A stretch of DNA of 60,642 nucleotides, filler included. It is 3 parts of 3 records of this genome, joined end to end, with 100 filler letters (N's around TTAATTAATTAA, not from the genome) between each part and the next. Parts side by side here need not be neighbours in the genome. Positions count along the whole stretch, not along the records: positions 1 to 27,231 come from SRR20825019_2999; 2 more parts are not named here. One strand, written 5' to 3'. This document shows positions 3,081 through 59,457 of this stretch, piece after piece. Below the pieces are notes generated by a model that saw only the letters and a list, made by a program, of their open reading frames with translations, was not told the origin of the DNA and made no database searches. Positions within the stretch are counted from its first letter, which is position 1; every line of letters starts with the position of its first letter. The position numbers were made by a program, and so were the translations under genes.

Positions 3081-3597
3081 CGGCTGTCAAATCAAAAAGA
3101 ATAAAGCATCACAAGGAGAGTAATGATGGTTAAGTAACTAAGGAGACTCCATAATCAATGTTAGACGTCATGTTTTGCGATCACAAGTATTGTTTTGGAA
3201 ATCATCCCAGTAAATTGCGGTTAATCTGCCTATGCCTACGCGGAGGCGGGCCCTTGCGGGACCATGGAGTCGGCACCGTCACGGTCGGCCCCTGCCTGCA
3301 AGTTTTGGGAGGCGGACAACTAGGACACCACAGCCCCTGACAAGCCGGCAGCCGCCGTGCCAAGTGAGTGTTGGGGTCGTCAGCTGGTGAACACTGAACA
3401 GGGCTGTTATCGGGGATGACGGGCCGGTGCCAGTTATTGGGGTGCTTGTTGCACCTAGGTAGGGAGCATCACTGTGTCCTTGGTGGGTGGCCCGTCGACA
3501 GTACTGTACACTTCTCTGTGGTCTCTACATATAGTTACTGGGATTCGTTACTAATCTTTTGTGTGGAGCCACCAGCGGGAGGGCAACAGGTGTGACT

Positions 3598-6500
3598 ATG
3601 GGTTGGAAACAGATTGAGGGCCACGGAACTCCACCCGCTCCACGGGAAGGCCACGGGACTGCAACCATCGCGTCCAATGGTCCTGAGGGGGACTACATGT
3701 ACATATTTGGAGGGCGCTCGCATGAGGGTAACCGCGACCTGAACGACATGTACCGCTTGGCAACGAGGACTCAGAAGTGGGAGAAAGTGTCGACCGGGCT
3801 GCGTGGGCCGTCTGCCCGAGTATCCATGACCCTCACGCCTATTCCCCCCATGAACCGCTTTGTCATGTTTGGAGGCAGCGGGACGGGAGTATCAGGAGAC
3901 CCCACCTTCTACAACGATGTTTGGGTGTTTGATACGACGACAAACGACTGGCAAAAGGTCAAGACACGCGGCACCCTTCCTGAGGGTCGCGAGTATCACT
4001 CCGCATCGTACTGTAAGGGTCAGCTGATCATATTTGGAGGGAACGGGGCCAAGAACCGGGTATTCAAGGACCTGTGGGTGTTGGACCTTGATCGATGGAC
4101 ATGGTCACAGCCTGAGTGCTCTGGCAGTGGCTCGCTTGAGTTCGGGGGGGCTCTGCCCGGTCCGCGATCAGGTCACACTTCCTGTGTACTGGCAAACAAG
4201 TTCCTGGTATTCATTGGTGGCCACAATGGCAAGGAGCTGGTATCAGACGTGAGGGTGCTGGATATTGACAGATGGCACTACAACAAGCCTCCGGTAAAGG
4301 GACCGACCCCAAGGCGATGGGGGCACACATGCATTGCGTTGAACAAGGGGGACATCTTCCGCCTGTTGGTTTTCGGAGGATATGACGGCAACTACACCAC
4401 CCAGGACATGTGGGTTCTTGACACCTCCACGATGACTTGGTACGAGCCTCCGCGCTCCACCGCCATACCTATCTCGGCGCGGTTTACACACTCTGCCACA
4501 GTGTGCAACGGCTTCGACATGTATGTGTTTGGCGGCTTCCAGGGCGATGTGAACCGTGGAAAAGGCAAGTGCTGCAACGATCTCCACGTGTTTTATGGGT
4601 CCAAAATACTTCATGATCTTGACCTGACACCAGAAGAGAAGGCTGGTGAGAAGCCATCGATGCCTTCTCGGAGTGCCAATGGCAGTGATGTCGGGGTGCA
4701 GACGGCCGGCTTTGGCGAGGTGGCCGACGGTATTTCAGCTCAGACGTTTTATGCTGAGGTTCAGGCGCTCACTGACTTTGTCAAGCACCGCAAGGTTAAC
4801 CGTTACGACTGGGGCTCGGTCGAGGTGATGCCGTTGATCAGACCCATGCGCCTAGCCGAGGTGGAAATCCTCAACTCTGACGTAGTGGATGTCCTTACGG
4901 ATATGTTGGAGCGGGGCCGGGATGATCACCGCACCTTTAAGGATAAGCTCAGTCGAGCCAAGGGCGACCTCGGCGATCGCTCCAACGAAGCATTGTGGGT
5001 GAAGTACATAGATGTTCGCGACTCTCTGCGAAAGAGGGCGCCAAATATCCCTGCGTCGGAGTGGGACAGCCTCGAGGGAGACTTCAGGAAGAAAGAGAAA
5101 TACAGGCACGAGTGTCTCAACATGTATCAAGAGGGCATGGACAATATTACTCGAATCCTCGAGATATATGGCGAACGGAAGCATTACGTGAAGACCGCGA
5201 CTTTCGAGGTTGATCGTGCCATCCACACCCTCCCTGACCTCCCCGTGTCGGATGGTCACCCATCTCTCTCTTCAGTCGTGGAAAAGTTCAGACGATGGAA
5301 ATCGCGTGTGGTAGCCGAGTGCATGCCAACTATCCTCAACACCAACAAGAAGGCCGAGGCTCTTCGCATTGCCCTTGATGAGGAACGGCGACTGGTGAGG
5401 GAACATGAGGCACTCTTTGCAGAGGGCTCTTCCATACTTGGAGGCTTCATTGCCATTGCCCAGGACTTCCTGCAGGATCTCAGCGGGGACAAGCTGGAGA
5501 CTGAGATTGGGGCCATGGAAGAGCTGAGACGTAAGTACCAGGAGCGCATCGACGAGCTACTGCGTGACATGGCCATTCGTGCGAAGGCCGAGGAGTGCAA
5601 GCAAATGTACCGCGAGTTCGCCAAGCAGAAGCGCAAGCTGACAAAGAAATATTATGAAACCGTTGCCCGCATAGAGTACTACAAGGCAGCGATGAATCAC
5701 GATCGGGACGCGGCGCGGAAGCTTAAGAAGGCCGAAAGTGATCTGCAACGAATCCAAGACGGGCTGACAGTTGCAGAGGAAGGTCTCGCAAAAGAAACCA
5801 TATGCATTGAGGAGGCAGGTGCGCTTGATCCTGAGCTGATGGACAAGGGCAACTCTGCAATACTGCAGAGTATCCGGGATACCGGCATGGTGCTACCGCT
5901 TACCATGGCCGACTTTGAGATTGTTGTGGACAAGGGCAAAACGAAGGTGTGCCTGTCATTACGTGAGAATCGTAAGATGTGTATTCTCAAGTGGTATGAT
6001 ATGAAGAGCCCTGCAGAGATGACAGAGGCGGAGAATCAGCTAGTCCTGGCGGAGGAGCTTGAACACCCGTCCATTAAGCCTTGTGAGGGTGTATTCCACA
6101 ACAAGGGCTCCCTTGTCGCTAAGATGCCATTCTTCGAACTAGGAACGCTCAAAGATTGGATCAACTCCAAGAACCCGCCGCCCTTCGATATACAAGCTGT
6201 GTATGCCCAGTTGTGTGCCTGTTTGGCTCATATGCACGATAGAGGATATGTGTATGCACGGCTGTCGATTCACTCTGTGGCGATCGCTGACGGGGGCAGT
6301 GTCGCCATGATCGACCTTGGTGGGGCCCACGAGGCTGACATGGACGACCCAGGTCTGATAGAAGACAACCCGAACCCGAAGACATCCGCCCCTGAGCTTC
6401 TCGATGGTGACGGTAGGAGCTGTCAGAGCGACATGTGGGACTTCGGTGTTGTACTTTATTATGCTGCATTCCATCACATGCCGGAGCTGAACTCTGGTGA

Positions 6501-7848
6501 AACAACTGTGAAGATCCCCGCGCATCCTCTTGAACGCCTCCGTGACCTCCTGCAACATCTTCTGGTGCGCGACGCACGTACCCGGTACACATCCCACCAG
6601 GCCCTTATGCACCAGTTCTTCACTAGGTCTATTGTGCATGACCTTAGCGAGCAGAACGAGGTCGCTGTGCGCGCAGATGTTGCGGTGACGGAGTTCCTTC
6701 CGCATGTGCGCAACGAGTCAAAGAAGAAGAGATTGGATGTCAACGAAAAGGCCCTGGTTGATTCTATGATGGACAAATTCGCACGGATCAAGAGTTCGGA
6801 GCTCATTTATCGCTTCGAATACTCATACAATGACAACAGTGGATGGCAGGGCAATTCTGCGGAGATTTACTCGCAGTTTGTGAAGATCATATTCTCGAAA
6901 CGCCGTGGGTCCGATGCGATGTTTGTCTCACACTCCGCTGTCGGCTTTATTCCGAATCCTTCGTACAATCCCACTGCAGACTTCGAAACCTTTGGCAAGA
7001 TTTTGGCCAAGGCAGTCATTGATGGATGCGTTGTACCGTGCATGTTTGGGTCATCGGTGTGGAAGTTCCTTTTGGACATCCCCGTCTCGCTTGGCGACCT
7101 TAAGGATTTCGACGAGGGCACTTACCGTGAATTCACCCGGATTCTTGAGACACCGAATGTCGAGAAGCTAGTGTCTGACCCAGATCTGAACGACTCCAAT
7201 AAGCATGAGTTTGTGCGCAAAAACACGGAAAAGATTCTTGTTGGAGTTTGCCGCAAGCAGCTAGAGGCTTTGTACAAGGGCTTCCATTGTGTGCCCGACA
7301 TGGCCTCACACGTGAAGATTCTGTCTGTCCGTGAGGTGAGGGAATTTGTGTGCGGGCAGACTCACATGACAGCAGAGGCTGTTATAGATGCCCTTCACTT
7401 TGAAAACTTCAAGAACCCTGAGTACATGAACAAGCTCTTGCTTTCCCTCTCGCCAAATTTGTTGCGTAGGTTCATGTACGCAGTAACTGGAATGTGGGGA
7501 TTCCCGAACGTCCGCCTCCATAATCCAACATACGAGGCCGTGCTCCGGGGCAAAATCACGATTCAGGGCAGCTCCAACACCGGCAGTCTGCCCACCCCCC
7601 GTGCCAAGCACTACCAGCTCGTGGTCCCTGAGTACGGCAACCAGGCTACACTCAAGGAGAAGATGGTGTCATGGTTGGAGCGTGTGGAGGATTATCCTGG
7701 AATTGAGCCCAACGAACCGCTGCTGACGCAAAACCGATCGGACCGCGCAGGTGGGCTGGTTGGCGAGTTGGGCCAAGATGCTCTGGCGAGCACTGCAGAT
7801 GATGTGAACCCGCAGAGCAACAGGAAAAAGAAGCTTCTTAGTCTCTAG
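3598..7848 (+). CDS. Kelch repeats + coiled coil + pseudokinase + HECT-like domain protein
   Basis: Six Kelch repeats (R-x-x-H...IFGG...ND.W), a helical/coiled-coil middle, a kinase fold (ILK, LEHPSIKP, DLG, SAPE, SDMWDFG) and a HECT fold (FGKILAKAV, VSLGDLKDFD, NKHEFV, QLEALYKGF, RFMYAVTG, LVVPEY). First ATG at 3598. Confidence 0.85.
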   Translation: MGWKQIEGHGTPPAPREGHGTATIASNGPEGDYMYIFGGRSHEGNRDLNDMYRLATRTQKWEKVSTGLRGPSARVSMTLTPIPPMNRFVMFGGSGTGVSGDPTFYNDVWVFDTTTNDWQKVKTRGTLPEGREYHSASYCKGQLIIFGGNGAKNRVFKDLWVLDLDRWTWSQPECSGSGSLEFGGALPGPRSGHTSCVLANKFLVFIGGHNGKELVSDVRVLDIDRWHYNKPPVKGPTPRRWGHTCIALNKGDIFRLLVFGGYDGNYTTQDMWVLDTSTMTWYEPPRSTAIPISARFTHSATVCNGFDMYVFGGFQGDVNRGKGKCCNDLHVFYGSKILHDLDLTPEEKAGEKPSMPSRSANGSDVGVQTAGFGEVADGISAQTFYAEVQALTDFVKHRKVNRYDWGSVEVMPLIRPMRLAEVEILNSDVVDVLTDMLERGRDDHRTFKDKLSRAKGDLGDRSNEALWVKYIDVRDSLRKRAPNIPASEWDSLEGDFRKKEKYRHECLNMYQEGMDNITRILEIYGERKHYVKTATFEVDRAIHTLPDLPVSDGHPSLSSVVEKFRRWKSRVVAECMPTILNTNKKAEALRIALDEERRLVREHEALFAEGSSILGGFIAIAQDFLQDLSGDKLETEIGAMEELRRKYQERIDELLRDMAIRAKAEECKQMYREFAKQKRKLTKKYYETVARIEYYKAAMNHDRDAARKLKKAESDLQRIQDGLTVAEEGLAKETICIEEAGALDPELMDKGNSAILQSIRDTGMVLPLTMADFEIVVDKGKTKVCLSLRENRKMCILKWYDMKSPAEMTEAENQLVLAEELEHPSIKPCEGVFHNKGSLVAKMPFFELGTLKDWINSKNPPPFDIQAVYAQLCACLAHMHDRGYVYARLSIHSVAIADGGSVAMIDLGGAHEADMDDPGLIEDNPNPKTSAPELLDGDGRSCQSDMWDFGVVLYYAAFHHMPELNSGETTVKIPAHPLERLRDLLQHLLVRDARTRYTSHQALMHQFFTRSIVHDLSEQNEVAVRADVAVTEFLPHVRNESKKKRLDVNEKALVDSMMDKFARIKSSELIYRFEYSYNDNSGWQGNSAEIYSQFVKIIFSKRRGSDAMFVSHSAVGFIPNPSYNPTADFETFGKILAKAVIDGCVVPCMFGSSVWKFLLDIPVSLGDLKDFDEGTYREFTRILETPNVEKLVSDPDLNDSNKHEFVRKNTEKILVGVCRKQLEALYKGFHCVPDMASHVKILSVREVREFVCGQTHMTAEAVIDALHFENFKNPEYMNKLLLSLSPNLLRRFMYAVTGMWGFPNVRLHNPTYEAVLRGKITIQGSSNTGSLPTPRAKHYQLVVPEYGNQATLKEKMVSWLERVEDYPGIEPNEPLLTQNRSDRAGGLVGELGQDALASTADDVNPQSNRKKKLLSL

Positions 7849-14249: not shown

Positions 14250-14880
14250 ACACCTGGCGAGGCGCGCCGGCGGTGGGGCCCCGCAGCCTCGGCTCACAGG
14301 GCGGTCCGGGCCGTGGTCCGGCGGTCCCGGCAGCCGGGCTCAAGGCCCGCGGCGGGCCGGCCGGTGCCATTTGGGTAATTACTAATCCGATCCGTAAGGG
14401 CGCGTGACAGTCCGTGCACCAAACTGTCACAATGTAAACGGCCAGTTTCATAATTGACATGTGCCACAAAATATGGGCGTCCCAAAAGGGGGTCAAATCT
14501 GATTATCTGATTGTTGTCGAGCCCGGCGTTCGGTGCCGGGTGCAAGGACCGACGCGGCCGGCGGCCGCCGGCGGCGCCTCACACATGCACAGTCCTGAGC
14601 GGCGCTGGCGCTGGCCGGTGCGCCGCTGAGCCGACCCGCGAGCCCGGCCAACCCAGCCGGCGCCGCGGCTGCCCGAGGCCCGACCCGGAGCCGCGGCCCG
14701 GCGACAGGCGGGCGCCGGCAAGGGCGCTGACCAGTCACGGGGACTGAAGCGCTCCGGCTGGCCAGCGACCGGACGCGACCGGCCCCGTCACCCAGCTAAG
14801 CCGGGAGTCCCGGCGCCGGCAGCCGGGGTACGGTCCCCTGCGGGCAGCGCCGGCGGGGCCGCGCCACCGCCTTCCGGTAG
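14250..14880. promoter_or_regulatory. Bidirectional promoter: GC-rich flanks around an AT-richer core
   Basis: Lies between divergent genes. The core (about 14370-14520) holds the perfect inverted repeat GTGACAGT-N11-ACTGTCAC (14404-14430). Confidence 0.55.
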
Positions 14881-14991
14881 TGTAAGGTCATCACTTCAAG
14901 ACTCCGCTGCTGGCGCTCAGCTTGCGGGCACATCCAACGCGTGTATATGTTTGTTTGCTGGATTTAGAAAGCTGCGGTTAGTTCGTTGAAA

Positions 14992-16182
14992 ATGGAAAAC
15001 GGCGGAAACAACCCGGTGGGGATGGACGCCCCGTCCCCCTACGTGTACCTTCCTCCTCTTCCCCTCTTGCTCCCCGTAGGATATTTTATGGGTTTGTTTT
15101 TATTAGTGTGCTGACCATGTATTCTAGGAAATGGCCGAGGCTCTGAAGAAACAAGGGAAGGTGAACGTTGCCACACCTAAGTCGGAAGCCGAACATTTGT
15201 ATGAACTCTACAAGCGTACAGCAGAAAAGGTTGCGGAGTACGATGAGAGCTCAAAGAAGTCACACAATTTGAAGATGCGGGATGTTGTGCTTGGCTTTAT
15301 GTCTTATATCCCTAGTGTGTCCACTGTTCGCCGCGACGGCGAGGAGCGTTCTGTGGACTCCAGGACGCTGGTCCCAGGAGATGTTGTAATCTTGAAGGCT
15401 GGAGGAAGTGCAGGGGCTGCTGTGGACGCTGACATGAGGATCATAAGCTGCTCTTCTGATTGCACGGTGTGTATATATTGGCTTCTTCGGTCGGTTTGTC
15501 TAACCATGGCGTGTGAAGGTCTTCACCCATCCTGTTGTCCCCAAGGATGCCGAATATCGCCCTGCGAAGCGCTCTGCCGGAAGTAAGAGTGGCGGCGCTT
15601 TTGCGGCTGAGAACATGCTTTGGAGCGGCACATTTGTTGTGACAGGTGCGGGTTGCGGGCAGTGTGCATTTTTTTTCTCTGATAGAGAACTTCCAGGCTC
15701 TGCTGTGGCGGTCGTGGTGGCTACTGGAGACTTCACCGCAGGGGCACGCGTTGATGCTTGGTGTGAGGGAATGAAGCTGGGAGGTAGGGTACCTTTCTTT
15801 GTATTCCAACCACACTGATAGACTCGGTTTCTAGGGGACGCGCTGAGTGCGAAGGGGATGCAGAAGGAGGAGGGTCGTGTTGCCAGTGGCTCTGATAAGG
15901 TGGGTTGCGGGTTGCGACTCGGAACAGAACTCACGATGTGCTAATGGGAATACACAGCTCCATTCCTTGAATCTGGTACAGGAGTTTGAGAAGACCATTG
16001 ATGTGCACACGATATCGGACAGGGATATTCTGCTGCGTGTGGATACCCCGCTGGATAACGGCCTTTCTACGAATGAGCACGACCGCCGAGTAGAGGAAGT
16101 TAGAGAGAACAATAGGACAAAGATCCCAAACATAGCTGGCGAGGCAGCGGGCGGAAAGTGTGCCAAGTGTGCCATCATGTAA
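14992..16182 (+). CDS. Stand-alone P-type ATPase actuator-domain protein, permuted order, C-terminal CaaX (CAIM)
   Basis: Exons 14992-15075, 15128-15466, 15519-15645, 15697-15783, 15835-15899 and 15958-16182 sum to 927 nt (308 aa + TAA). Contains STVRRDGEERSVDSRTLVPGDVVILKAG..ADMRII..ENMLWSGTFVVTGSAVAVVVATGDFT, then DVHTISDRDILLRVDTPLDNGLSTNEHDRRVEE. No TM helices and no DKTGT. Confidence 0.8.
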
Positions 16183-16330
16183 AGCTCGACAAAGAGATAT
16201 GGCATGCTGTAGTGTTTAAAAAGCTGCATTTGGGTCCAAAAAGAAAACAGTGTGTCATAATACAGTGGCGTCACTCGATGACTCGGCATGCTCTACCGCC
16301 TGGCCATCACGCTAAGAAAGCCAATTTCTC

Positions 16331-16785
16331 CTATTGCTTATTCTTGGGATTGTGCTTCTGCAAATAGGCAGCGAGAAACTCCACGGGGTCGGAGGGTCTA
16401 CACGGGATGTGAGTACCAGCACTATGCACAGCTAGACCCGGCCTACCTCTCCTTCACAAGCTGCGACAGAGCCTGCAACAGAATCGGGACTACGGTATGG
16501 TCCAGGTAGGCACGGATGGGAAGGGCATTGGCAGGAACCTTCTGCTGATCACCAAGAGAGCCCGCCACATCCTGAGCGTGGGCAGCCTGGAGAAAAACTG
16601 AGACCAGGAACAGACACAGTCATACACTACACGAACCTCATCCTTGTTATCAAGTCCACTCAAGAGAGCATCAGCAGCGGCGCCGGCATCGGACCCGGCG
16701 GCGGGTGTTCCAGCTTCACGAAGAGTTAGGAAGTATACCACACACACCAACACGTGCACGCACCAACTTCACCGTTGTCAGACAT
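16331..16785 (-). CDS. DPY30: Dpy-30 family protein (101 aa)
   Basis: Four exons (introns 16714-16763, 16587-16636, 16398-16446) give [43 protein letters not shown], the Dpy-30 motif. Missed by the ORF track. Confidence 0.92.
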
Positions 16786-16999
16786 GACGGACCTATTGTA
16801 AAACTTGATTGTATATTGTGCCACAGATACTTAAGGAGTTGATGAAAGTCAAAAGTTCCCTACACGACTTGAAAGGTGATGTTGGCAGCGTTGTTACTGG
16901 GTGGGGTCCGCGTGGACATTATGGACGGACAGCCAACTACCAATAGGCAACGCGACGTGTACTTCCCACTCGCCTGCCTATCCGCCTTCACGGACTGTC

Positions 17000-48257: not shown

Positions 48258-48414
48258 GATGAATTTAGAAGTGGAGAATGCTGCGCAGAGACTTACGGAA
48301 ATTATATATGAGCAGAAGCCAGGCTCCAGTTGTCAGACGAGGTGGGTTCGGGAAGTGTGAAGTGACGAGCTCGCCGTTGGCAGAGGGGAGGTTGGGGGGG
48401 GGGGGGGGGGGGGG

Positions 48415-48514
48415 NNNNNNNNNNNNNNNNNNNNNNNNNNNNNNNNNNNNNNNNNNNNTTAATTAATTAANNNNNNNNNNNNNNNNNNNNNNNNNNNNNN
48501 NNNNNNNNNNNNNN
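48415..48514. other. Artificial contig-joining linker
   Basis: 44 N + TTAATTAATTAA + 44 N, preceded by G21 (48394-48414). Base composition changes abruptly after it. Confidence 0.97.
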
Positions 48515-49019
48515 CCCAGTAAATTTTTTGGTACATATTTTAGGGTGTTTAACAAGTGATTCCGGTTAAGAAAATTTCCCAAAAAACCCTTATTTTATGG
48601 TAAGATACATGTCGCTTAAATGAAATTCGCGTTATAAGATTACTATATACAAATATTACAAATGTTCCCTGTTATGAGATTATAACATCAAGAAGTAGAA
48701 AATGCTAAAACTTCTTAAGTTTAAGTATTCAGAAAGATTCAAGTAAAATTGTAGCTTTTTTAAAGAATGATCAAATATTACCAAAGATAAAAAAAGCAGT
48801 TTATAGTCAAAAATTTACAACTAAACATAATGACTACAATACAAAAATTATTATTAAGTTTATTAATATTAATAATACTATTATATAGATTGTTTAAAAT
48901 TATCAAGGCTTATTTTGAACAACTATAACTTACTATAAGGTGATTGAGTTAGTATTTAATTCAATTTTTATAAAATCATCATCTTATTATATAAGCTTAA
49001 TACTGCATTATTTAAAATC

Positions 49020-51950
49020 TTATAAGGTTATAATATTACTATCATTAATTAAATCATCTTCATTACATATAACTCCTAGTTCTTTAAGAGCATCATCATA
49101 TCTTGAAAGAAATCCTAAAAAACCATCAGAGTAATTATTATGGCTATAAGTAAATGCTATAATAGCAGCTTTCACCATAGGATCTTTATCTGTAGTTACT
49201 TCAGCTAAATTTCTAGCTATAATATAAAGTAATTCACTAGGTAAATCTGTTATACTCGGTTTGTTTTCTTTATTGATAGGTTCAGCATTAGAAGATTCTG
49301 AAAATAAGTCTTTACAGGTAATTACTATATTTTTTAAAGCCAGGATGTTGATACCTCTATAAATTTCTATATGTTCAAGGTACATTTTAAATCCATCGCC
49401 ATCAAATGTTGGCCATTCATAATAAGGATCATGCATAGTTAAATATATCATTGACTCTAAATGACGGTTACTGTGAGCTATTGTAAAGGCTAAATCATTA
49501 CAAGCGTGTATAATATTTTTCTTATTTTCAGAGTACTGGTCTAAATCTATTAAGTATTTCATAATTTCTATATGACCATTACTTGATGCGCCTACGAAAG
49601 CAAGGCTAGCATAATCAGAAATCATATTTTTTTTAGTTTCTGGATCTTGTATCAGATCAATTAGATATTGCAATACCTTAATATGACCATTTACAGAGCT
49701 GGCTATAAAAGCAGCATTATTCTCTGAATGAATCATGTTACTTCTAATTTCAGGATCTTGTGTTAAATCAATTAGATATTGCACAATCTCAATTTGGCCA
49801 CATCCAGCGCATGTTATAAAAGCAGCATTATTTTGGGAATGGATCATAGTATTTCTGGTTTCTGGATCCTGTGTTAGATCAATCAAATACTTCATTACTT
49901 CTATGTGACCTTGAATGGAAGATGATATGAAAGCTACATCTTCTCTAGCATGAATCATTTCTTGAATAGCTTCTTGGTCTTCGGTTAAATCAATCAAATA
50001 CCTCATATTCTCTAAATGACCATAGCATGCAGTTAATATAAAAAGATCAATATTTTTTGCATGAGACAGAGATCCAAGCTCTAAGGTCAAATCATTGTTA
50101 TTTTCTATGGCTTCATAACTTTTATTAATAACTGAGTCTGATGCAGCATTATTAAAAACTGTCATATCTCTAATTTTACTAATGAAATTGTTTTTAATTT
50201 CTGTAATAGACTGATATTTACTATCAAAAAATTCTGAAACTTTATAGAAAAGTCGTTTTTCATTTTTGTGAGCCGCTAAATGATTTAGAGATAGCTGTAA
50301 GTTATTTTTTGCATCATTATTATCAGGTTCAATCTCTAATGCTTTTTTGCAGTATTTTAACGCTTCATCATTTCTTCCTAAGCTCCTTAAGTCATATCCT
50401 AAGTTAATATATGCAGAAACAAAATTGGGGTTTAAATCTAAAGCTTTTTTGTAACTTTCAACAGCTTGCTCAGTCTGACCTAAATTCTTAAGTGAATGTC
50501 CTAAATTATAGTATGTAAGAGAGCATTTATTATCTAAATCTATAATTTTTTTAAAGTATTCAATAGCTTCTTCATACCTATCTAGATTACACAAAGTCAA
50601 ACATAGCTTGTTATAAGCACCAATATATTTAGGGTCTATTTCAATAGCTTTTTGATACCTTTCAATAGCTTTTTCAGGTTTACCTGTTTTCATATGAGAA
50701 TCTCCAGCATATTTGTTTGAAATGGCTAATGCTTTCTTAAGGTTATATTTGCCTTCTTCAATATTTTCCAATAAACATTGCGATATAGCAATGTTACTAT
50801 ATGCCATAGCGCAGTCTGGGTCTAGATCTATAGCTTTTTTATAGAACTTTATAGCCTCCTGGTGTTTGCTTGAGATAGTCAAAAACTCTCCTATTTTATT
50901 ATATATTGTAGAATATTTAGGATCTAATTTTATGTCTTTTTTTATGTTTTCTTTAGAGTTTTTACTTATTAAGAAATTATCTGATGTAAATCCTACTACT
51001 TCATTTGACACTTTAACTATTTCTGTTTCTTGAACATTTTGTGGTTCTTGATTTAATGATATTGATTCATTATAAAATATTTCACCTCGGTTATCTTTTA
51101 TTGATTCATTAATATTATTGTTTTTAAAGTTTTCTTTATTTTTTATATTTTTTTTTAAATCATCACGAGAAATATTAAAGTCAACATATGAAGTGCTACA
51201 ACCAGTTTCTAACTCTTGGGCTTTCTGAAAGTAATTTGTTGATTCTGCACTATTTCCTAAACTTCTAAGGGCTTTACTCATTTCATTATATGCTAGAACG
51301 AATGTTGGGTCTAATTTAATAGCTTTTTTGTAACTTTCAATAGCTTCATTGTATTTACTATTAATATTAAGAGAATTACCCATATTAAAGTATAAAATAG
51401 ACCATTTTGGTTGTAGTTCTATAGCTTTTTTATATCCTTCAATAGCTTGATCATCTTCCCCAATATAATATAAAGAATTACCTATTTTATTATAAGCAAT
51501 TGCTAATGATTTTTTGTATAACTCTAAAGCTTCTTCAATTTTACCAGATTTTCCTAGAATATTACCAATGCTTACATATGCAATAGAACATTGTGGATCT
51601 AACTCTATAGCTTTATTATAGTTCGTTACAGCGCATTCAGTATAATCTAATTTACTATAACAAAATCCTATGTTGTAGTATGCTAAAGCATTCTTTTTAT
51701 CTAGCTCTATTGCTTTTTTACAGCAGTCTATAGCTTTACTATATTCTCCTAAATTACAAAGTGACAATCCCATATTATTGTAAATAGTGGAATATATAGA
51801 ACTTAACTGGGTATCGTTCTTAGCATTTGTAAGACATTTCTTGTAGGCTTCAACAGCTTCTTTATAACTTCCACTTTTGTAATAATCATTTCCAATATTA
51901 AAGAATGTAAAATCAGTTTTATTACCAAATTTTTTAAATAAATCTTTCAT
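49020..51950 (-). CDS. TPR + ankyrin-like repeats + C-terminal F-box-like motif; candidate secreted effector
   Basis: Two TPR blocks (YKKAIELDP..AY.N.G), six 37-aa ankyrin-like repeats, and SITDLPSELLYIIARNL. ATG at 51950 follows an RBS-like AGGGGT; the ORF track begins at an upstream TTG. Confidence 0.85.
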   Translation of the reverse strand: MKDLFKKFGNKTDFTFFNIGNDYYKSGSYKEAVEAYKKCLTNAKNDTQLSSIYSTIYNNMGLSLCNLGEYSKAIDCCKKAIELDKKNALAYYNIGFCYSKLDYTECAVTNYNKAIELDPQCSIAYVSIGNILGKSGKIEEALELYKKSLAIAYNKIGNSLYYIGEDDQAIEGYKKAIELQPKWSILYFNMGNSLNINSKYNEAIESYKKAIKLDPTFVLAYNEMSKALRSLGNSAESTNYFQKAQELETGCSTSYVDFNISRDDLKKNIKNKENFKNNNINESIKDNRGEIFYNESISLNQEPQNVQETEIVKVSNEVVGFTSDNFLISKNSKENIKKDIKLDPKYSTIYNKIGEFLTISSKHQEAIKFYKKAIDLDPDCAMAYSNIAISQCLLENIEEGKYNLKKALAISNKYAGDSHMKTGKPEKAIERYQKAIEIDPKYIGAYNKLCLTLCNLDRYEEAIEYFKKIIDLDNKCSLTYYNLGHSLKNLGQTEQAVESYKKALDLNPNFVSAYINLGYDLRSLGRNDEALKYCKKALEIEPDNNDAKNNLQLSLNHLAAHKNEKRLFYKVSEFFDSKYQSITEIKNNFISKIRDMTVFNNAASDSVINKSYEAIENNNDLTLELGSLSHAKNIDLFILTACYGHLENMRYLIDLTEDQEAIQEMIHAREDVAFISSSIQGHIEVMKYLIDLTQDPETRNTMIHSQNNAAFITCAGCGQIEIVQYLIDLTQDPEIRSNMIHSENNAAFIASSVNGHIKVLQYLIDLIQDPETKKNMISDYASLAFVGASSNGHIEIMKYLIDLDQYSENKKNIIHACNDLAFTIAHSNRHLESMIYLTMHDPYYEWPTFDGDGFKMYLEHIEIYRGINILALKNIVITCKDLFSESSNAEPINKENKPSITDLPSELLYIIARNLAEVTTDKDPMVKAAIIAFTYSHNNYSDGFLGFLSRYDDALKELGVICNEDDLINDSNIITL
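49440..50045 (-). repeat. Intragenic tandem 111-bp (37-aa) ankyrin-like repeats
   Basis: TGACCAT recurs at 49573 and 49684 (111 bp apart). Consensus AF..S..GHIE..YLIDLTQDPE...MIH..NN. Confidence 0.85.
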
Positions 51951-52427
51951 ATTACTTTTTACCCCTAATTTAAAATTGTTATATGATTTTGAACTATGAT
52001 CATAGCACAAATATATAATTTAGACAAGTACTTGATAATTGCAGTACAGTCTATAAAGATATTGAAAGTTAAAGCTAATATGCTTATATTCTATGTATGA
52101 ATTATATAAAAGTTGCATTTTCTGAATATAAGGATAAAGCATATATGATCATAGACTGAATTAGTTTTGAGTGTATAAGTGCATTTTCTGATAAATAATT
52201 AGCCCATCTCTAAAAGAATAAAAAACATAACTATGTAAATAATTATTAATGATTTTATGCATCATTTAGTATGTCCTTTTCATGGAAAGTAAATATTTCT
52301 AGATTGATTTTACTTTTCTTTTATAGCAAATATACTAAAATGCTATTTTTTAAGGAAATAACCGTTGGCTTTAATAACTTGAAATTATTTCTTTAATAGA
52401 GTTTAATCAATATTTAAGTATTATTAT

Positions 52428-53414
52428 ATGTTTCCTCTAACACGCTTGAGACGAAATAGGAAAGATAAATGGATCAGGGATTTAATTGCTGAAACTAGTT
52501 TATCAGTTGATGATTTAATATTGCCTTGTTTTGTAATAGAAGGTCATAATATTAATGAGGAACTACAAAATATGAAAGGGGTATATAGAATGTCAATTGA
52601 TATTCTCATAGAAAAACTTAAATTAGCTACAGATTTAGGTATTAAAGCAGTTGCATTATTTCCGTATATTGATGACTCACTTAAAACTTCTTGTGGAAGT
52701 GAGGCATTTAATCTTGATAATCTTATATCAAGAACAATAAGAACCATAAAAATTAATAATATTAATATAGGAATTATTGCTGATGTAGCTCTGGATCCTT
52801 ATACCTTGTCTGGTCATGACGGGATTCTAGTTGATGGAAAAATCGATAATGATAAAACATTAGAATCTTTATCTAGGCAGTCCTTAGTTCTTGCAAAAGC
52901 AGGTGCTGATGCTATTGCTCCATCAGACATGATGGATGGAAGGGCTTTGACTATTAGAGAATATATTGATGATGAGGGTTTTAGTAATATAAATATATTT
53001 TCATATTCAGTGAAGTATTCATCAAGTTTTTATTCCCCGTTTAGAGGAGCAATAAATGCATCTAGTAATTTAGGACCTGAAAAAAAGAATACTTATCAAA
53101 TGGATAAAAGGAATTTTAAGGAGGCATTAAGGGAGGCCGAATTAGATGTTCAAGAGGGCGTTGATGCAATAATTATAAAACCGGGGCTTCCTTGCCTTGA
53201 TGTTATTCATGCAGTAAGTAATCTGCATCAAGTACCTGTTTTTGCTTTTCAAGTTAGTGGAGAATATGCAATGATACAAAACTGCAATAACTTAGATATG
53301 GATCCAAAAGAAATATTATTTGAAAGCTTGATATCATTCAAAAGGGCTGGCGCGAATGCAATATTCTGCTATGGTGCTATAGATGTCGCAAAACGAATAT
53401 CTGAACATAAATAA
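52428..53414 (+). CDS. hemB: Porphobilinogen synthase (ALA dehydratase), Asp-rich non-zinc type
   Basis: RLRRNR, ADVALDPYTLSGHDG (Cys ligands absent), APSDMMDGR, KYSSSFYSPFR, YQMD, IKPG, QVSGEY. Confidence 0.97.
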   Translation: MFPLTRLRRNRKDKWIRDLIAETSLSVDDLILPCFVIEGHNINEELQNMKGVYRMSIDILIEKLKLATDLGIKAVALFPYIDDSLKTSCGSEAFNLDNLISRTIRTIKINNINIGIIADVALDPYTLSGHDGILVDGKIDNDKTLESLSRQSLVLAKAGADAIAPSDMMDGRALTIREYIDDEGFSNINIFSYSVKYSSSFYSPFRGAINASSNLGPEKKNTYQMDKRNFKEALREAELDVQEGVDAIIIKPGLPCLDVIHAVSNLHQVPVFAFQVSGEYAMIQNCNNLDMDPKEILFESLISFKRAGANAIFCYGAIDVAKRISEHK

Positions 53415-53439
53415 CTTCTCTACTTAAATCATATATTTT

Positions 53440-54072
53440 ATGGAAAAATTTCTAAAGATTGTAATTATTTTTACACTGCTAATATTTGGTGTATCTATAT
53501 ATTTCATAGTTAATAACAATGTTTCTTATGATAAGCCAGTAGCTGGCAAAGGTAGTACAGTAAACAAAAATGATATAAATATAGGAGGAGAGCCTTTTAC
53601 TTTAACTGATCATAATGGCAATATTTTTACAGAACAAGATTTAATAGGAAATCCAAGTATGGTATATTTTGGATTTACTTTTTGTCCAGATGTATGTCCA
53701 GCTTCACTTGAAAAATTTGCTAAGATCTTTGATACTTTTAAGAGATATTCTATGAAAGTTAAGTTTATATTTATTAGCATTGACCCATTAAGAGACAGAC
53801 CAGAATTACTCAAAAAATATCTTGAATATTTTAATGAGGATTTCATAGGCCTTACTGGTAGTGAAGAAGAAATAAAAAAAGTTGCTGATTCATTTAAAGT
53901 TATTTACACAAAATCTAACTCTTTAGAAAATAAAGATGATTATATGATGGATCATACTACTCTTCTTTATATATTAGATAAAAATGCAAAGTATCAGAAG
54001 CATTTCTTTTTAAATTCTACTCAACAAGAAATAGAAAATTACATAAGATCTAATAAGAATCTTTTATTTTAA
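53440..54072 (+). CDS. SCO1/SenC copper chaperone
   Basis: N-terminal TM, YFGFTFCPDVCP, ISIDPLRD, YMMDHT. Confidence 0.95.
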   Translation: MEKFLKIVIIFTLLIFGVSIYFIVNNNVSYDKPVAGKGSTVNKNDINIGGEPFTLTDHNGNIFTEQDLIGNPSMVYFGFTFCPDVCPASLEKFAKIFDTFKRYSMKVKFIFISIDPLRDRPELLKKYLEYFNEDFIGLTGSEEEIKKVADSFKVIYTKSNSLENKDDYMMDHTTLLYILDKNAKYQKHFFLNSTQQEIENYIRSNKNLLF

Positions 54073-54296
54073 TGTCTAAATAATAAATTTTTTAGTCGTT
54101 TATCATTTATCATTTATTTATAAAATTCACTATATTAGTTTATATAAAATATTGATGAAGAAAAAATTTATAATATAATAATTTAGATATTAAATAATAA
54201 AGATTAACTAATTTTTATTTATTAATTTATATAATTTATCAACTTAGATATAAAAAATTAATACCAATTTTTTAGAAATTGAAACAAAAAGATTAA

Positions 54297-55391
54297 ATGA
54301 AAGATAACCAAAATATTTTAAATTCAGATAGCGAAAAGCTTGAATATATTGAAAAGCAAAGTAAATTTTTTAATATAGATCTTGGTAATATTAAAAGTCT
54401 TACACATGATAGGCTTGATGATTTAGTGAATTTTTTAGGTAGAGGTGATGCTATTTTAGCTAGTGCTGGTAATATCATTAATAGTATTGAGGAATTTAAA
54501 GAGCATAATAAGGTTGCAAGATTTATTGATGATAAAATTGGTGGGGTGAGTTTTGTTAAAGATTTTCATCACTCTTTCAATGATTCTATATATAATCCGT
54601 TGATTACAATGCAAAGAGATCTAAAAAAAAGCTACCATGAAAAAGATTACCTATCTTTAGTACAAACGATACTTGGAGGAGTTATTAATACACATAAAGG
54701 ATTAGGTAGGTTAAGAAAAGAAATGCGTCAAAAGCATCCTAGAAAAGTGAGGTTATTAGAAGCTTCCATTGCGCCAATTATAGTTTATTTAAGTACAAAA
54801 ATAGGGCCAGCATTTGGTGTTGCTATGGGCACTTGTGTTGTTGCTAAAGGTGGGGTTGATGTTGTTTCAAAAGGAAGAGATATGATAAAAAATTACAAAG
54901 AAGCTAAAAATCTTAAAAAAGATGATAAAGATTTTGATAAACTAGTAGATGATTTAGTAAGTAAGGAAGAAATTAGTGATTCATTACCTATAGCAAAAAA
55001 AATATTATATGAAGAGAAAATATCACCCAAAAAAGTGCATGGGTTAATTGAAAATGATTTAAAAGATTATAATATAGGTCAAGAACATAAAGAGTTTTTA
55101 GATAGCTATATATCAGGTTACTCAAGATTAATTCAAATTGCAGCAGAAGAAAGATCTTCATCACAGAGAAATATTTTAAAAATAAAGGCTTTAAATAATC
55201 TTATAGAAGGATATGAAATAGTATGTGAGTTAAATAATATTAATAGTAAAGAAAAAAAGGAATTATCTTTTAATTCTATTTCAAAAACTATTATTAAAGA
55301 TTGGAAGTCAGCAATTGAAAAAGAAAGAGGGCTTGAGAATTCTAAAGTAAACTTGCATTCAAAACAAAACCCTGTAGAAAGAAGTATATAA
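54297..55391 (+). CDS. Hypothetical helical protein with a central hydrophobic segment
   Basis: A 364-aa ORF in very AT-rich DNA is unlikely to be chance; no family recognised. Confidence 0.8.
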   Translation: MKDNQNILNSDSEKLEYIEKQSKFFNIDLGNIKSLTHDRLDDLVNFLGRGDAILASAGNIINSIEEFKEHNKVARFIDDKIGGVSFVKDFHHSFNDSIYNPLITMQRDLKKSYHEKDYLSLVQTILGGVINTHKGLGRLRKEMRQKHPRKVRLLEASIAPIIVYLSTKIGPAFGVAMGTCVVAKGGVDVVSKGRDMIKNYKEAKNLKKDDKDFDKLVDDLVSKEEISDSLPIAKKILYEEKISPKKVHGLIENDLKDYNIGQEHKEFLDSYISGYSRLIQIAAEERSSSQRNILKIKALNNLIEGYEIVCELNNINSKEKKELSFNSISKTIIKDWKSAIEKERGLENSKVNLHSKQNPVERSI

Positions 55392-55425
55392 TCATTTATC
55401 AAAAATATATATTAAAAGAAAAGTT

Positions 55426-56142
55426 ATGAATACTTATTTATTAATAATTAAGATCTGCATTTTGGTATTAACTAGCAATGTAAAAGCAAGCGGTATATTA
55501 CCAAATATATTTATGGGTGGTAGCTATTCATATTCATCTCCATTATCTGGGTCAATTATAGAGAAAGATGTTGATGAAAATGAGAGTGAGATAAAAATAA
55601 AAAAATCTAGAGGATATAGTGTTTATGTAGGTACAGGAATTATTCCAGGCAGTGAGTTTATGATTCAATATTTAAGCAGAAATAACTTTCCAGCTTCAAT
55701 ACTTACTCCAAGTATCAAGAACATAGCACCTGCAACTAAATCAGATACTAAAGCAAAGATTTCAGCTTTTATTGGAATGGTTAATTTAAAATTACTTCCT
55801 TTAGGAATAGTTGATACCTATTTTAGAATAGGACTTGGGCGATCAAGATCAAGAATATTAGCTTCTGATGGAGAAATTGCTGAAGGTAATAATAAGGGGA
55901 TGGTAGCAATCAAATATTTAGATAATAAAAAAAATGGTATAGCTACATATTTTGGTGTTGGTAGCATTTTTCATTTAAGTAGTTTTATAAAACTCACTTT
56001 TGATGCAGGAATTTTGGGTATTTCTTCAGCAGAAATTAAATATAAAAAATTGATGCCAAGTGGTAATTGGTCAGAACCATCATCAATTAAAAAGGCTATG
56101 GGGGCTTATGAGTTTTTGATTGGTTTAAGATTTAATATCTAA
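55426..56142 (+). CDS. Outer-membrane beta-barrel protein (OmpA/opacity-like small barrel)
   Basis: Signal peptide ending VKA, amphipathic strands (YFRIGLG, YFGVG) and C-terminal beta-signal YEFLIGLRFNI. Confidence 0.8.
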   Translation: MNTYLLIIKICILVLTSNVKASGILPNIFMGGSYSYSSPLSGSIIEKDVDENESEIKIKKSRGYSVYVGTGIIPGSEFMIQYLSRNNFPASILTPSIKNIAPATKSDTKAKISAFIGMVNLKLLPLGIVDTYFRIGLGRSRSRILASDGEIAEGNNKGMVAIKYLDNKKNGIATYFGVGSIFHLSSFIKLTFDAGILGISSAEIKYKKLMPSGNWSEPSSIKKAMGAYEFLIGLRFNI

Positions 56143-56251
56143 TTATGACGCATATAGCTATAAGCTTTTAGTATAATCTTGAATTTTTAGAATAGTAAGT
56201 TTTAAATTACCTAGATATCGATATATAGGGAAGAAAATATATCAAATATGT

Positions 56252-57490
56252 TTATATTTTTTTCCAGTCTTTCTTTTTAGTAGCAGGTGAGAAATAATTT
56301 CCTTGCATTCCATGTATTTTTATTTCTTTTAGATATTCAGCTATTTCTGAAGATTCAACATATTCTGCAACAGTTTTAGCCCCAATACTTTCTGCAATTT
56401 TTATAAGCGTTTCAACAAGGACTCTATTTTGAGTATTTTTAAATATGTTTTTAATATAATGTCCATCAATTTTTATAATATCTATAGGTAATTTATTTAA
56501 TTGCATAAAAGAAGTATAACCAGATCCAAAATCATCGATTGCTATAGTTGAACCTAATGAATGAATCAAATCAATAAATTTTCTAGTATAATCATAATCT
56601 AAATTACAAGCTGTTTCAGTTATTTCTATAACTAGTCTTGAAGCTATTTCTTTATTATATAGTAATTTTTTTATATATTCATGTAAGCCAAGATCTGATA
56701 CTCCTAAATGAGAGATGTTAATAGATAGTTTAATCCTTGAATTTTTTAACTCTTCTATAACCATATCAAGTACCATACGGTCAATAATATTTATTAAACT
56801 ATTTTGTTCAGCTGATTTAATAAGAGGACCAACTGAAAAAACTTCTCCATGTTTATTTGGGATTCTTAAAAGGCATTCATAATAAATTATATCATTACTT
56901 TTACATTCTAATATTGGCTGATATACAAATGATACTTGTTTTTTTATAATAGCTTCTTTTAGTAAGGAGAGGTTTTCATGGTCATTTTTTAATTGACTTA
57001 GTTTATTATTTTTTTCTTGATATTCAATATAGTAATTACTACATTCTTTACATACTGTACTAGTTACAAGTTTTTTAAGCAAGTTTTCAGGGGTAGTTCC
57101 AAATTCCGGATATTTTATAGATGTAATTTGTAAATCAATATTTACTTTGGTTGATTTATAAATATCAAGCTGACTAAAATTAAAAATTCTATCTGATAAA
57201 AGTCTTACTTCATGATTTGTAAAGTCTTGTAATATTGAGATTATCTCATGATCATTTAGTTTTATCCATGAAGCGTTATGAGTATTATCTAGTATTTTGA
57301 TTATACCTTGAGTTAACTTTTTTTTAGTATTTGTATATTCATCCTTTCCAAACATAATAGTGTTTATGTCTGAATTTGTATGTTTTATTAAAATAATAAT
57401 ACCTTGTTTTGATAAAGAGATTGAATTTTTAAATTCCTCTTCTACTAGCTTGAGTTTATCTTGGCCATATATGGGCTCAAAACATTCCAT
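56252..57490 (-). CDS. Degenerate GGDEF + EAL c-di-GMP phosphodiesterase
   Basis: YQPI, ECLLR, SIN, EITE, DDFGSGY, KIDG, AEYVE, QGNYF. The GGDEF position reads NDHEI. GAGG RBS upstream. Confidence 0.92.
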   Translation of the reverse strand: MECFEPIYGQDKLKLVEEEFKNSISLSKQGIIILIKHTNSDINTIMFGKDEYTNTKKKLTQGIIKILDNTHNASWIKLNDHEIISILQDFTNHEVRLLSDRIFNFSQLDIYKSTKVNIDLQITSIKYPEFGTTPENLLKKLVTSTVCKECSNYYIEYQEKNNKLSQLKNDHENLSLLKEAIIKKQVSFVYQPILECKSNDIIYYECLLRIPNKHGEVFSVGPLIKSAEQNSLINIIDRMVLDMVIEELKNSRIKLSINISHLGVSDLGLHEYIKKLLYNKEIASRLVIEITETACNLDYDYTRKFIDLIHSLGSTIAIDDFGSGYTSFMQLNKLPIDIIKIDGHYIKNIFKNTQNRVLVETLIKIAESIGAKTVAEYVESSEIAEYLKEIKIHGMQGNYFSPATKKKDWKKI

Positions 57491-57809
57491 TGCTACCTCA
57501 AATTACTATGTTTTTCAGATGCTAACACAAGATTTAAAGGAAAGCAAATAAGTTTTTCAAAAAACACAATAAATATTTGTATTCATTACTTATTGATGAG
57601 TTTAAACATATTTGTTATTGATGATTTAATTAATAATTGTAGAATGAAACAGTTAAATAAAAATTCAAACAAAATTTTAGTCAAACAAAGTTTTTATAAA
57701 AGAATTTAAATAATTTTTTCAAAAAATAATTAAATAATCTTCTTATTTAGTTAATTAGTTGTAAAGTTTGCTTTTTAAGAAATCATAAAATAATTATAGG
57801 ATAAAGTTT

Positions 57810-58160
57810 ATGTATGATGATAGAAATATATTTGCCCAAATACTTAATAAAAAAATTAAAATTAATAAAGTTTTTGAGAATAAATATGCTATATCATTTT
57901 GGGATATAGCTCCTGTTGCACCTATTCATGTTTTAGTTATTCCCAAGGGTAAATATAAAAATTATAGTGATTTTATCAGTAATGCAAAAAATGATGAAAT
58001 AAATGGCTATTATAAATCTATACAACACACATTAAGTGCACTTAATATAACAGATGGAAGTTATAGACTAATTTCAAATTGTAAAAGTAAATCAGGTCAA
58101 ACTGTTATGCATTTTCATACTCATATAATATCTGGTAAAGAATTAACCAGTTTAATATAA
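57810..58160 (+). CDS. HIT family nucleotide hydrolase (HinT-like)
   Basis: NIFAQI, DIAPVAPIHVLVIPK, GQTVMHFHTHII. Confidence 0.95.
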   Translation: MYDDRNIFAQILNKKIKINKVFENKYAISFWDIAPVAPIHVLVIPKGKYKNYSDFISNAKNDEINGYYKSIQHTLSALNITDGSYRLISNCKSKSGQTVMHFHTHIISGKELTSLI

Positions 58161-58262
58161 TTTTATTAATGTTATAAATAATAAAAGCTAATTATCTAAT
58201 AGAAATAATTTTATAAATCTCAAAATAGTTAAAAACCTAAATAAATCAAAAAAGTCAAATTT

Positions 58263-59273
58263 ATGATATCAAAAAAATATAATATAGGAGTAGTTGGAGC
58301 TACTGGATCAGTTGGTAGATCTTTAATCAGTCTTTTAGGTGAAAGGAATTTTCCAGTATCTTCTCTAAAAGCATACGCAACTGAAAAATCCATAGGAAAA
58401 AAAATTAGTTATTTAAATACAGAGATATCTGTTGATCTAATTGATAATATAGATTTTAGTAAGATAGATATAGCATTTTTTTGTACAGAAGCCTCTATTT
58501 CAAGAAAGTATGCTACTAAAGCTATAGAGATGGGCTCTATAGTGATTGATAAATCTTCATGTTATAGAATGCAGCAAAATATTCCCTTAATAGTACCTGA
58601 GGTGAATTTTAATAAATATCTAGAAAGTAAAAATCAATTTATAATTTCAAATCCTAATTGTTGTGTTATACCTATTGCATGTGTATTAGATATAGCTCAA
58701 AAATTATCAAAAATAAAAAGAGTTATTATATCAACATATCAATCAGTTTCTGGTTCTGGTAAGCATGGTATGGATTCTTTGTATCAACAAACTATGTCAA
58801 AATTTGGCTTTAATTCAGAAGGTTTTAATATATATAAAAAACAGATAGCATTTAATATAATACCTGAAATAGGAGAAGTTAATAGTTCTGGGGATACTGA
58901 AGAAGAACAAAAAATTGTAGAAGAACTACAAAAAATTTTTTCAAATGATATTAAGATAAGTGCAACTTGCGTAAGAGTTCCTGTTTATATTGGACACTCT
59001 TTTAGTATTAATATAGAATTTGAAGGGGCTCCTCAATTATCAGATCTTAAAAGAGAATTTACATCACAAAAACATATTAAATTTTTAGACTTTGGGGAAG
59101 AAGATATTACACCTAAGGATTTTAGTGGTAAAGACTACATATCTGTCTCAAGACTTAGAAAAGATACATCATGCAGTAACTCTTATAATTTATGGGTAGG
59201 GTGCGATAATCTCAGAAAAGGTGCATCACTCAATGCTATTCAGATTGCTGAACAAATAATAAAAACAAAGTAA
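58263..59273 (+). CDS. asd: Aspartate-semialdehyde dehydrogenase
   Basis: VVGATGSVG, PLIVPEVN, SNPNC, TYQSVSGSG, ATCVRVPV..GHS, DNLRKGA.LNAIQI. Confidence 0.96.
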   Translation: MISKKYNIGVVGATGSVGRSLISLLGERNFPVSSLKAYATEKSIGKKISYLNTEISVDLIDNIDFSKIDIAFFCTEASISRKYATKAIEMGSIVIDKSSCYRMQQNIPLIVPEVNFNKYLESKNQFIISNPNCCVIPIACVLDIAQKLSKIKRVIISTYQSVSGSGKHGMDSLYQQTMSKFGFNSEGFNIYKKQIAFNIIPEIGEVNSSGDTEEEQKIVEELQKIFSNDIKISATCVRVPVYIGHSFSINIEFEGAPQLSDLKREFTSQKHIKFLDFGEEDITPKDFSGKDYISVSRLRKDTSCSNSYNLWVGCDNLRKGASLNAIQIAEQIIKTK

Positions 59274-59457
59274 ATAAAATTTATTATAATTATAAAATAA
59301 TTAATACTTCTTACTATTATAAAAATTTAAATATTATAAACCATGAATTTTGCTTAAGTAAAGTCTAATTTTATCTAAATATATTTATATATAAACTGAT
59401 TATTATTTATGAATTTATTATTTTTATGATAGCAAAGTAATTTAACTTATTAGATTA

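Follow-up and report, generated by a model that had tools for sequence, protein, structure and literature searches.

All P-type pumps couple ATP chemistry to gating through the movement of their actuator (A) domain, which to our knowledge has been studied only as part of a pump. In the type IIC enzymes (the alpha subunits of Na,K- and H,K-ATPases as well as the fungal and rotifer IIC-like pumps P0016–P0135) this domain is composed of two blocks, a cytoplasmic N-terminal segment (N-segment) that precedes the transmembrane (TM) helices M1-M2 and a beta-core that follows them in the M2-M3 loop. The same two blocks were detected in a gene of six exons located on the plus strand, at positions 14992–16182, of the stretch of DNA analysed here (the window; 60,642 nucleotides, the first 27,231 of which come from SRR20825019_2999). 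The gene encodes a protein of 308 amino acids (aa) that differs from the type IIC A domain in that the order of the blocks is reversed, the core (residues 81-202) preceding the N-segment (residues 247-281), and in that M1-M2 and everything past the linker to M3 (A-M3 linker) are absent. Further differences are DAEY in place of the catalytic motif TGES, DAD in place of PAD, a 4-residue insertion before the motif DADMRI and a CaaX tail. As judged from the profile comparisons described below, the 308-aa protein was shown to be cut from a type IIC-like (Na,K/H,K-type) P-type ATPase at domain borders, and the gene is very probably what this composition indicates, an order-swapped pump actuator gene. 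This architecture, a membrane-free actuator domain with its pieces swapped and a CaaX ending, appears to be new; among the papers listed by the literature searches, none dealt with a stand-alone or permuted A domain or with membrane-less actuator proteins.

Two other systems can be compared with this protein. The first is a family of tandem actuator proteins (the P0144 group, described below), which is likewise derived from IIC-like pumps, likewise has no TM helices, P-domain or N-domain, and has a lost or variable TGES. Its members differ in keeping the pump order with M1-M2 excised (N-A-linker-N-A) and in their C-termini, since none of 27 ends in CaaX. The second, alike only in the way in which it would work, is the group of Ras-type CaaX proteins, which carry a C-terminal C-x-x-C-a-a-X, with Met as X, after a flexible Gly/Ala stretch; their folded domains are unrelated to that of the 308-aa protein, for which lipidation is predicted from the sequence pattern. 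In H-Ras the lipid tail consists of a farnesylated Cys and an acylated Cys upstream of it.

The A-domain core and its catalytic loop

Exon 2 alone matched the Pfam family PF00122 (E1-E2_ATPase) at 32.9 bits (cut-off 28.1; E 5.9e-8; model positions 2-49), and its best solved relatives in the PDB, as found with phmmer, were a Listeria Ca-ATPase and the alpha subunits of Na,K- and H,K-ATPases (E 0.0014-0.018). A set of pumps was collected with P0012 as query, which gave 3555 proteins at E<=1e-10 among 7992 candidates; the source names of the 120 listed pumps are mostly those of Na,K-, H,K- or cation-transporting ATPases from rotifers and fungi. Profiles were built from P0012 and 109 listed pumps of at least 900 aa, with 110 rows for the A-core and 108 rows for the N-terminal segment (two mostly-gap rows were dropped). 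Against the A-core profile the spliced protein scored 67.8 bits (E 4.4e-23, Z=1) over residues 81-202, and the maximum obtained with 20,000 shuffles of the protein was 13.2 bits. The beta-core that had been recognized in an earlier reading of this DNA from its letters alone (the sequence-only reading) is thus supported by both the Pfam family and the pump profile. The best individual matches reach 41-45% identity, in the first half of the core, and both pump profiles, that of the core and that of the N-segment, match the protein.

The resemblance to pumps starts at about residue 76, in the cytoplasmic end of the M2 stalk, and stops at about residue 213, at the start of the A-M3 linker, while the N-terminal 75 residues match nothing in Pfam or in the protein scan. 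Based on PF00122, the PDB search and the pump profile, exon 2 (15128–15466, residues 29-141) encodes a hydrophilic stretch, the remnant of the M2 stalk (residues ~76-92) and the first half of the beta-core, the landmarks of which are VRRDG at residue 95, LVPGD at residue 109 and DADMRI. The contig joints and the profile alignment assign the degenerate TGES loop and the strand GTFVVTG to exon 3 (15519–15645, residues 142-183), and the last strands of the core (SAVAVVVATGD) together with the start of the pump A-M3 linker to exon 4 (15697–15783, residues 184-212). When exon 3, intron 3 and exon 4 were read through, no Pfam family was found, and the same read-through gave a weak PDB match (phmmer, E 1.4) to residues 233-270 of Na,K-ATPase alpha-3 that includes partly intron-coded residues. 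Of the 29 core columns that are conserved in at least 90% of the pumps, 15 are kept, among them the Arg of RDG, V.GD, AD.R and, in the last strands, Gly/Thr. The other 14 are lost, including three residues of TGES (T, G and S) and the Pro of PAD, which here reads DAD.

The position of TGES is occupied by D151-A-E-Y154 (15546–15557, plus strand), as placed by hmmsearch and MAFFT alignments and by the position of the motif. The replacement of TGES claimed in the sequence-only reading holds for T, G and S, each of which is at least 99% conserved in the 110 pumps; it does not hold for the Glu, which is kept, the aligned stretch being DAEY. With these three residues lost no dephosphorylation would be expected, although the Glu is retained in the alignment, and the domain may be regarded as putatively dead in catalysis. 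A pump fragment of 117 aa (P0005) ends in ...LTGTFTHPV, and the pentapeptide FTHPV is also found at the start of exon 3 (VFTHPVVPK, 15522–15536), at the position of the TGES loop; this sharing could be due to chance or be a sign of a related lineage.

No other part of a pump accompanies these blocks. A tblastn search with eight pump-related proteins revealed no DKTGT, P-domain, N-domain or TM piece, with nothing below E 0.5 outside 15131–16110 in the window, and the transcript stops at 16389 without further exons. Since no other pump piece lies in the window, the gene is not a piece of a full pump, in agreement with what had been read from the letters. The sole hydrophobic window of 19 residues (residues 174-192; Kyte-Doolittle value 1.81) aligns with the cytosolic beta-hairpin GT..G....V.ATG of pumps and, being the beta-hairpin of the core, is not a TM helix; together with the tblastn result this upholds the proposal that TM helices, P-domain, N-domain and DKTGT are all missing. 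Membership among functional P-type pumps fails on three counts: DKTGT, TM helices and TGES.

The C-terminal N-segment and the putative lipidation tail

Exon 6 (15958–16182, residues 235-308 and the stop codon) was assigned to the N-terminal segment of pumps and a putative lipidation tail by contig joints, translation and profile search. Within it, profile search and shuffles identify residues 247-281 (TIDVHTISDRDILLRVDTPLDNGLSTNEHDRRVEE; 15994–16098, plus strand) as a homologue of the segment that forms the cytoplasmic N-terminus in IIC-like pumps. The N-segment profile of 108 pumps matched these residues of the spliced protein at 18.1 bits (E 7.5e-8), a score attained by none of 20,000 shuffles, which reached a maximum of 11.0. 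As the pumps of the profile were chosen via the A-core alone, this test is independent and not circular. Among the six columns of the N-segment that are conserved in at least 90% of the pumps four are kept (H, G, L and N), the stretch ENNRTKIPN overlies the pump motif G.N..(S/T)PP, and the segment ends where a pump enters M1. The three top ESM Atlas clusters for the C-terminal segment were of the Cation_ATPase_N type (0.89, with 148 of 256 features in common), which is to be taken as a lead only. Both pieces of the protein resemble the same pump subfamily, the IIC-like one.

Core and N-segment are separated by a linker of ~44 residues (203-246), or of ~30 when the whole beta-core is counted, part of which is encoded by exon 5 (15835–15899, residues 213-234; contig joints and translation), a hydrophilic stretch with no family match. 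A complex prediction made with the chain split into exon 2, the exon 3-4 read-through and residues 1-60 of exon 6, without alignments, scored 0.28 against a mark of 0.34.

The N-segment is followed by the tail GGKCAKCAIM. Its last four residues, C305-A-I-M308 (16168–16179, plus strand, read from the sequence), are followed by the stop codon and fit the CaaX pattern, as had been stated in the sequence-only reading; a second Cys, C302, stands three residues before C305. A CaaX box with Met as X is a farnesylation signal, and an upstream Cys can serve as a second lipid site, as in H-Ras.

Gene model and transcript evidence

The gene model is based on contigs of the two public runs (X1 and X2) that a search recovered for this region, both belonging to one sample of one study, the kind of run not being on record. 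Aligned to 14300–16900, these contigs cover 14976–16389 with 0 mismatching letters and skip exactly five GT..AG stretches, at 15076–15127, 15467–15518, 15646–15696, 15784–15834 and 15900–15957. The X1 contig (1177 letters) begins at 14976 behind a loose end of 27 letters, which we take to be the SMART template-switch oligo, and reaches 16389; the loose ends of other contigs are presumably Nextera adapters. Because of the intron-less joints and the adapter-like ends the contigs were read as cDNA, and the SMART-like loose end places the 5' end of the mRNA at 14976, 16 nt before the ATG at 14992. This ATG is the first of the transcript and opens a spliced open reading frame (ORF) of 927 nt, or 308 aa, that runs to the stop after GGKCAKCAIM. 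The six exons and 308 aa of the sequence-only reading are thereby confirmed, all five introns being joined exactly by the cDNA-like contigs. An alternative splice model drawn by eye with a donor at 15043 (297-303 aa) was ruled out, as the cDNA contigs put the donor at 15076.

On the plus strand, the features at the two ends of the transcript are the 5' untranslated region (UTR; 14976–14991), defined by the start of the cDNA-like contig with its adapter-like loose end in front, the coding part of exon 1 (14992–15075), which by the joint 15075>15128 in both runs and by translation encodes residues 1-28, a Pro-rich leader (..PSPYVYLPPLPLLLP), and a 3' UTR (16183–16389) that extends at least to 16389 according to the 15956–16389 piece of the X1 contig. 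Codon usage is 0.251 bits per codon in frame compared with -0.35 and -0.48 off frame, and five neighbouring ORFs range from 0.146 to 0.254. The observation of an expressed, spliced, pump-derived gene is confirmed.

Two additional features were observed in this region. Intron 3 (15646–15696; 51 nt) is in frame and stop-free, and its retention would lengthen the core's beta-hairpin by 17 residues; the contigs show it removed by splicing. Directly upstream of the transcription start, at 14520–14880, lies a tract that by eye is very GC-rich, with GCC/GGC runs.

An artefact was also considered, in which faulty assembly or modelling would have made the locus out of part of a full pump gene. The assembly is a draft that shows poly-G, N runs and a linker at 48.4–48.5 kb, and such defects would favor this explanation; however, the independent cDNA-like contigs agree with it without a single difference over 14976–16389, beginning and ending outside the ORF, and no other pump parts are present within 15 kb upstream or 32 kb downstream on the contig. 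The possibility of an artefact is thus considered extremely slight.

Relatives and membrane-less tandem actuator proteins

A word-index protein search with exon 2 produced 624 candidates, none of them at E<=0.001. With the same exon, a HMMER scan of 1.84 billion representatives retrieved 15 proteins at E<=0.001, none at E<=1e-10; in 14 of these the match is limited to the A-core part (residues 47-112 of exon 2), and the remaining one, P0011, is a chance-looking repeat protein. Pfam annotation of ten of the 15 detected E1-E2_ATPase in nine and Cation_ATPase_N in six. In metagenomes, exon 2 matched 16 loci over residues 52-110 only, at 41-57% identity, which corresponds to the A-core region common to pumps, while exon 6 gave 262 pattern matches and 0 relatives. 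Homologues keeping the CaaX box, a search for which had been proposed in the sequence-only reading, were not found in either the protein or the metagenome scans.

Two of the 15 proteins matched in the exon 2 scan, P0004 and P0015, are membrane-less actuator proteins. A search with P0004 yielded 68 proteins at E<=1e-5 among 627 candidates, and the family set used here was taken from P0144–P0187, of which the 27 with a length of 340 aa or more were used and the shorter ones left out, as were later rows. These proteins measure 349-401 aa (~375 aa), are encoded on contigs of ~1.2-1.7 kb from metatranscriptome-type eukaryotic sources and form a conserved, unnamed family with 40-79% identity to P0144 (P0144–P0187). 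Their layout consists of an N-segment, a degenerate core in which TGES is lost, a linker, another N-segment and a second core with a variable TGES, and TM helices are absent. A confident AF2 model of P0144 with the 27 rows (pLDDT 81.9, pTM 0.76) shows a pair of folded modules, with a linker at 186-220 that is disordered. PDB matches are best with H,K- and Na,K-ATPases (E ~3e-13), and those in the ESM Atlas are to bacterial pump-fragment clusters only. The conservation of a membrane-less actuator family elsewhere indicates that such modules can be stable proteins. P0015 (247 aa, from a cluster of 2) is also membrane-less; it opens with a short stretch resembling an N-segment, after which come two A-domain cores (PF00122 in two stretches), with EETGG/TETGE-like loops in place of TGES; by eye it looks to derive from a different pump subfamily than P0144.

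The window protein was tested as a member of the P0144 group and rejected, as the alignment to the family HMM is not collinear: its core aligned with the second core of the family (47.4 bits) and its C-terminal segment with the first N-segment (5.1 bits), and the total of 54.9 bits is lower than the 67.8 bits obtained with the pump profile. This result also bears on an explanation in which the protein is functional without any permutation in three dimensions. According to it, the core would fold with its own helices (residues 29-75), the C-terminal N-segment, lying beside the lipid anchor, would act on its own as a peptide close to the membrane or as a binding motif, and the protein would be a remnant (N'-A-N) of a tandem (N-A)(N-A) protein. 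Tandem proteins of this kind without a membrane part do exist, MAFFT set QGKVNVATPK of exon 2 on the pump motif YGxNxxTPP, tblastn aligned the N-terminal segment of P0015 with the start of exon 2, and an ungapped 4-residue insertion (GGSAGAAV) is common to the A-core of the window and the first core of P0004. Nevertheless, a degenerate first N-segment at residues 29-66 is unsupported, given that the N-segment profile gave only 1.6 bits on residues 1-90 whereas shuffles reach 11.3, and the tandem-family profile is both non-collinear and outscored by that of pumps. This explanation seems improbable, though it deserves some weight.

Proposed mode of action

Based on the composition of the protein, a mechanism can be put forward tentatively, and we consider it rather doubtful in its entirety. 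The N-segment would pack back on the beta-core, so that the two pieces make up an actuator-like module despite their swapped order; the linker of ~44 residues (203-246) would be long enough for this. A farnesyl group on C305, perhaps together with an acyl group on C302, is predicted to replace M1 as membrane tether; as the lipid tail sits where M1 leaves the N-segment in a pump, the module would be attached to the membrane in about the same way. Placed at the cytosolic face of the membrane, it may work as a non-catalytic, membrane-tethered binding or regulatory unit. Its most obvious partners would be either a pump's P/N headpiece or the proteins normally docking on pump A domains. Action in trans on pumps is only a possibility within this scheme. 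In a more specific version, the farnesyl-tethered swapped A module would dock on the P/N headpiece and gate or lock the E2P/E2 steps, constituting a detachable regulatory subunit derived from the moving part of the pump, and the P0144 family would be an independent instance of this principle; this we regard as unlikely.

Several observations weigh against the proposed composition and mechanism. Compared with Pfam, exon 6 gave no match to PF00690 (Cation_ATPase_N) at E<=10 or to any other family, and its two PDB matches at E<=10 (phmmer) are not ATPases. The C-terminal N-segment announced in the sequence-only reading stands in so far as an IIC-specific profile finds it, located after the core; its expected match to Pfam Cation_ATPase_N failed. 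That PF00690 misses exon 6 and the IIC-like profile matches it supports a homology specific to the subfamily. The CaaX box could be a chance ending of four residues, considering that no homologue with the tail was found. Transcript evidence is limited to one sample, whose runs are not recorded as RNA. Neither an orthologue nor a homologue with the same order or tail was recovered in the word-index, 1.84-billion and metagenome scans and, since no orthologue was found, there is no evidence of purifying selection. Finally, trans action meets a physical objection, as the A domain belonging to the pump itself competes in cis at a very high local concentration.

Some of these observations are shared by a further explanation, in which the gene is a transcribed by-product of evolution: a partial duplication or rearrangement of an IIC-like pump gene would have left an open frame with no selected function. 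In accordance with this, no search retrieved an orthologue, the catalytic motif is degenerate, the N-terminal 75 residues are unmatched and the transcripts come from one sample. On the other hand, the 308 codons spread over six exons are free of stops, with five introns precisely removed, codon usage is host-like, and the three cuts fall at domain borders such that every hydrophobic TM stretch is gone. In addition, the conserved columns that were lost include the catalytic motif, while many residues related to the fold were kept. By a rough estimate a random frame of 308 codons with this composition would be open with a probability of ~5e-6, which counts against a long period of neutral drift and not against a very young gene. 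A by-product is judged the less plausible account, though one with an appreciable chance of being correct. The preferred explanation of the locus, an order-swapped actuator gene acting by the mechanism proposed above, has in our opinion an even chance of being right when composition and mechanism are taken together.

The surrounding sequence

Up to 48.4 kb the window consists of eukaryotic DNA of ~52-60% GC. A convergent gene was observed on the minus strand at 16204–16799; it encodes 101 aa, is covered by intron-less contigs with CT..AC joints, and shares ~185 nt at its 3' end with the actuator 3' UTR. By eye, the C-terminal part of its product resembles a Dpy-30 motif. Further upstream, Kelch repeats occur together with a protein kinase domain and a HECT ubiquitin-ligase domain in a stop-free frame of 1437 aa on the plus strand (3535–7848), a combination that would be unusual if this were one gene.

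At 48396–48515 the eukaryotic sequence ends in a poly-G run, followed by N runs around TTAATTAATTA, which resembles an artificial six-frame-stop linker. From there to the end of the window (48516–60642) the GC content drops from ~52% to 20-30%, and the sequence looks like a bacterial contig with intron-less ORFs, including those for ALAD/HemB, SCO1/SenC, aspartate-semialdehyde dehydrogenase, an EAL-domain protein and a TPR+ankyrin protein of 999 aa. This part probably stems from a symbiont or a contaminant, its contig having been attached during assembly, with no biological junction.

Concluding remarks

The gene described here can be viewed as a natural protein-engineering experiment in which an A domain was cut at its three membrane connections and rejoined in the opposite order, with a lipid-anchor signal in the place of M1. 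As such, it offers a minimal soluble A-domain for study and an opportunity to test whether N-terminal segment and beta-core depend on being connected in the native way. Should the protein bind pumps, it would represent a new type of regulator for them. Considered jointly with the tandem family, it suggests that the headpiece domains of pumps have been recruited repeatedly as stand-alone proteins.

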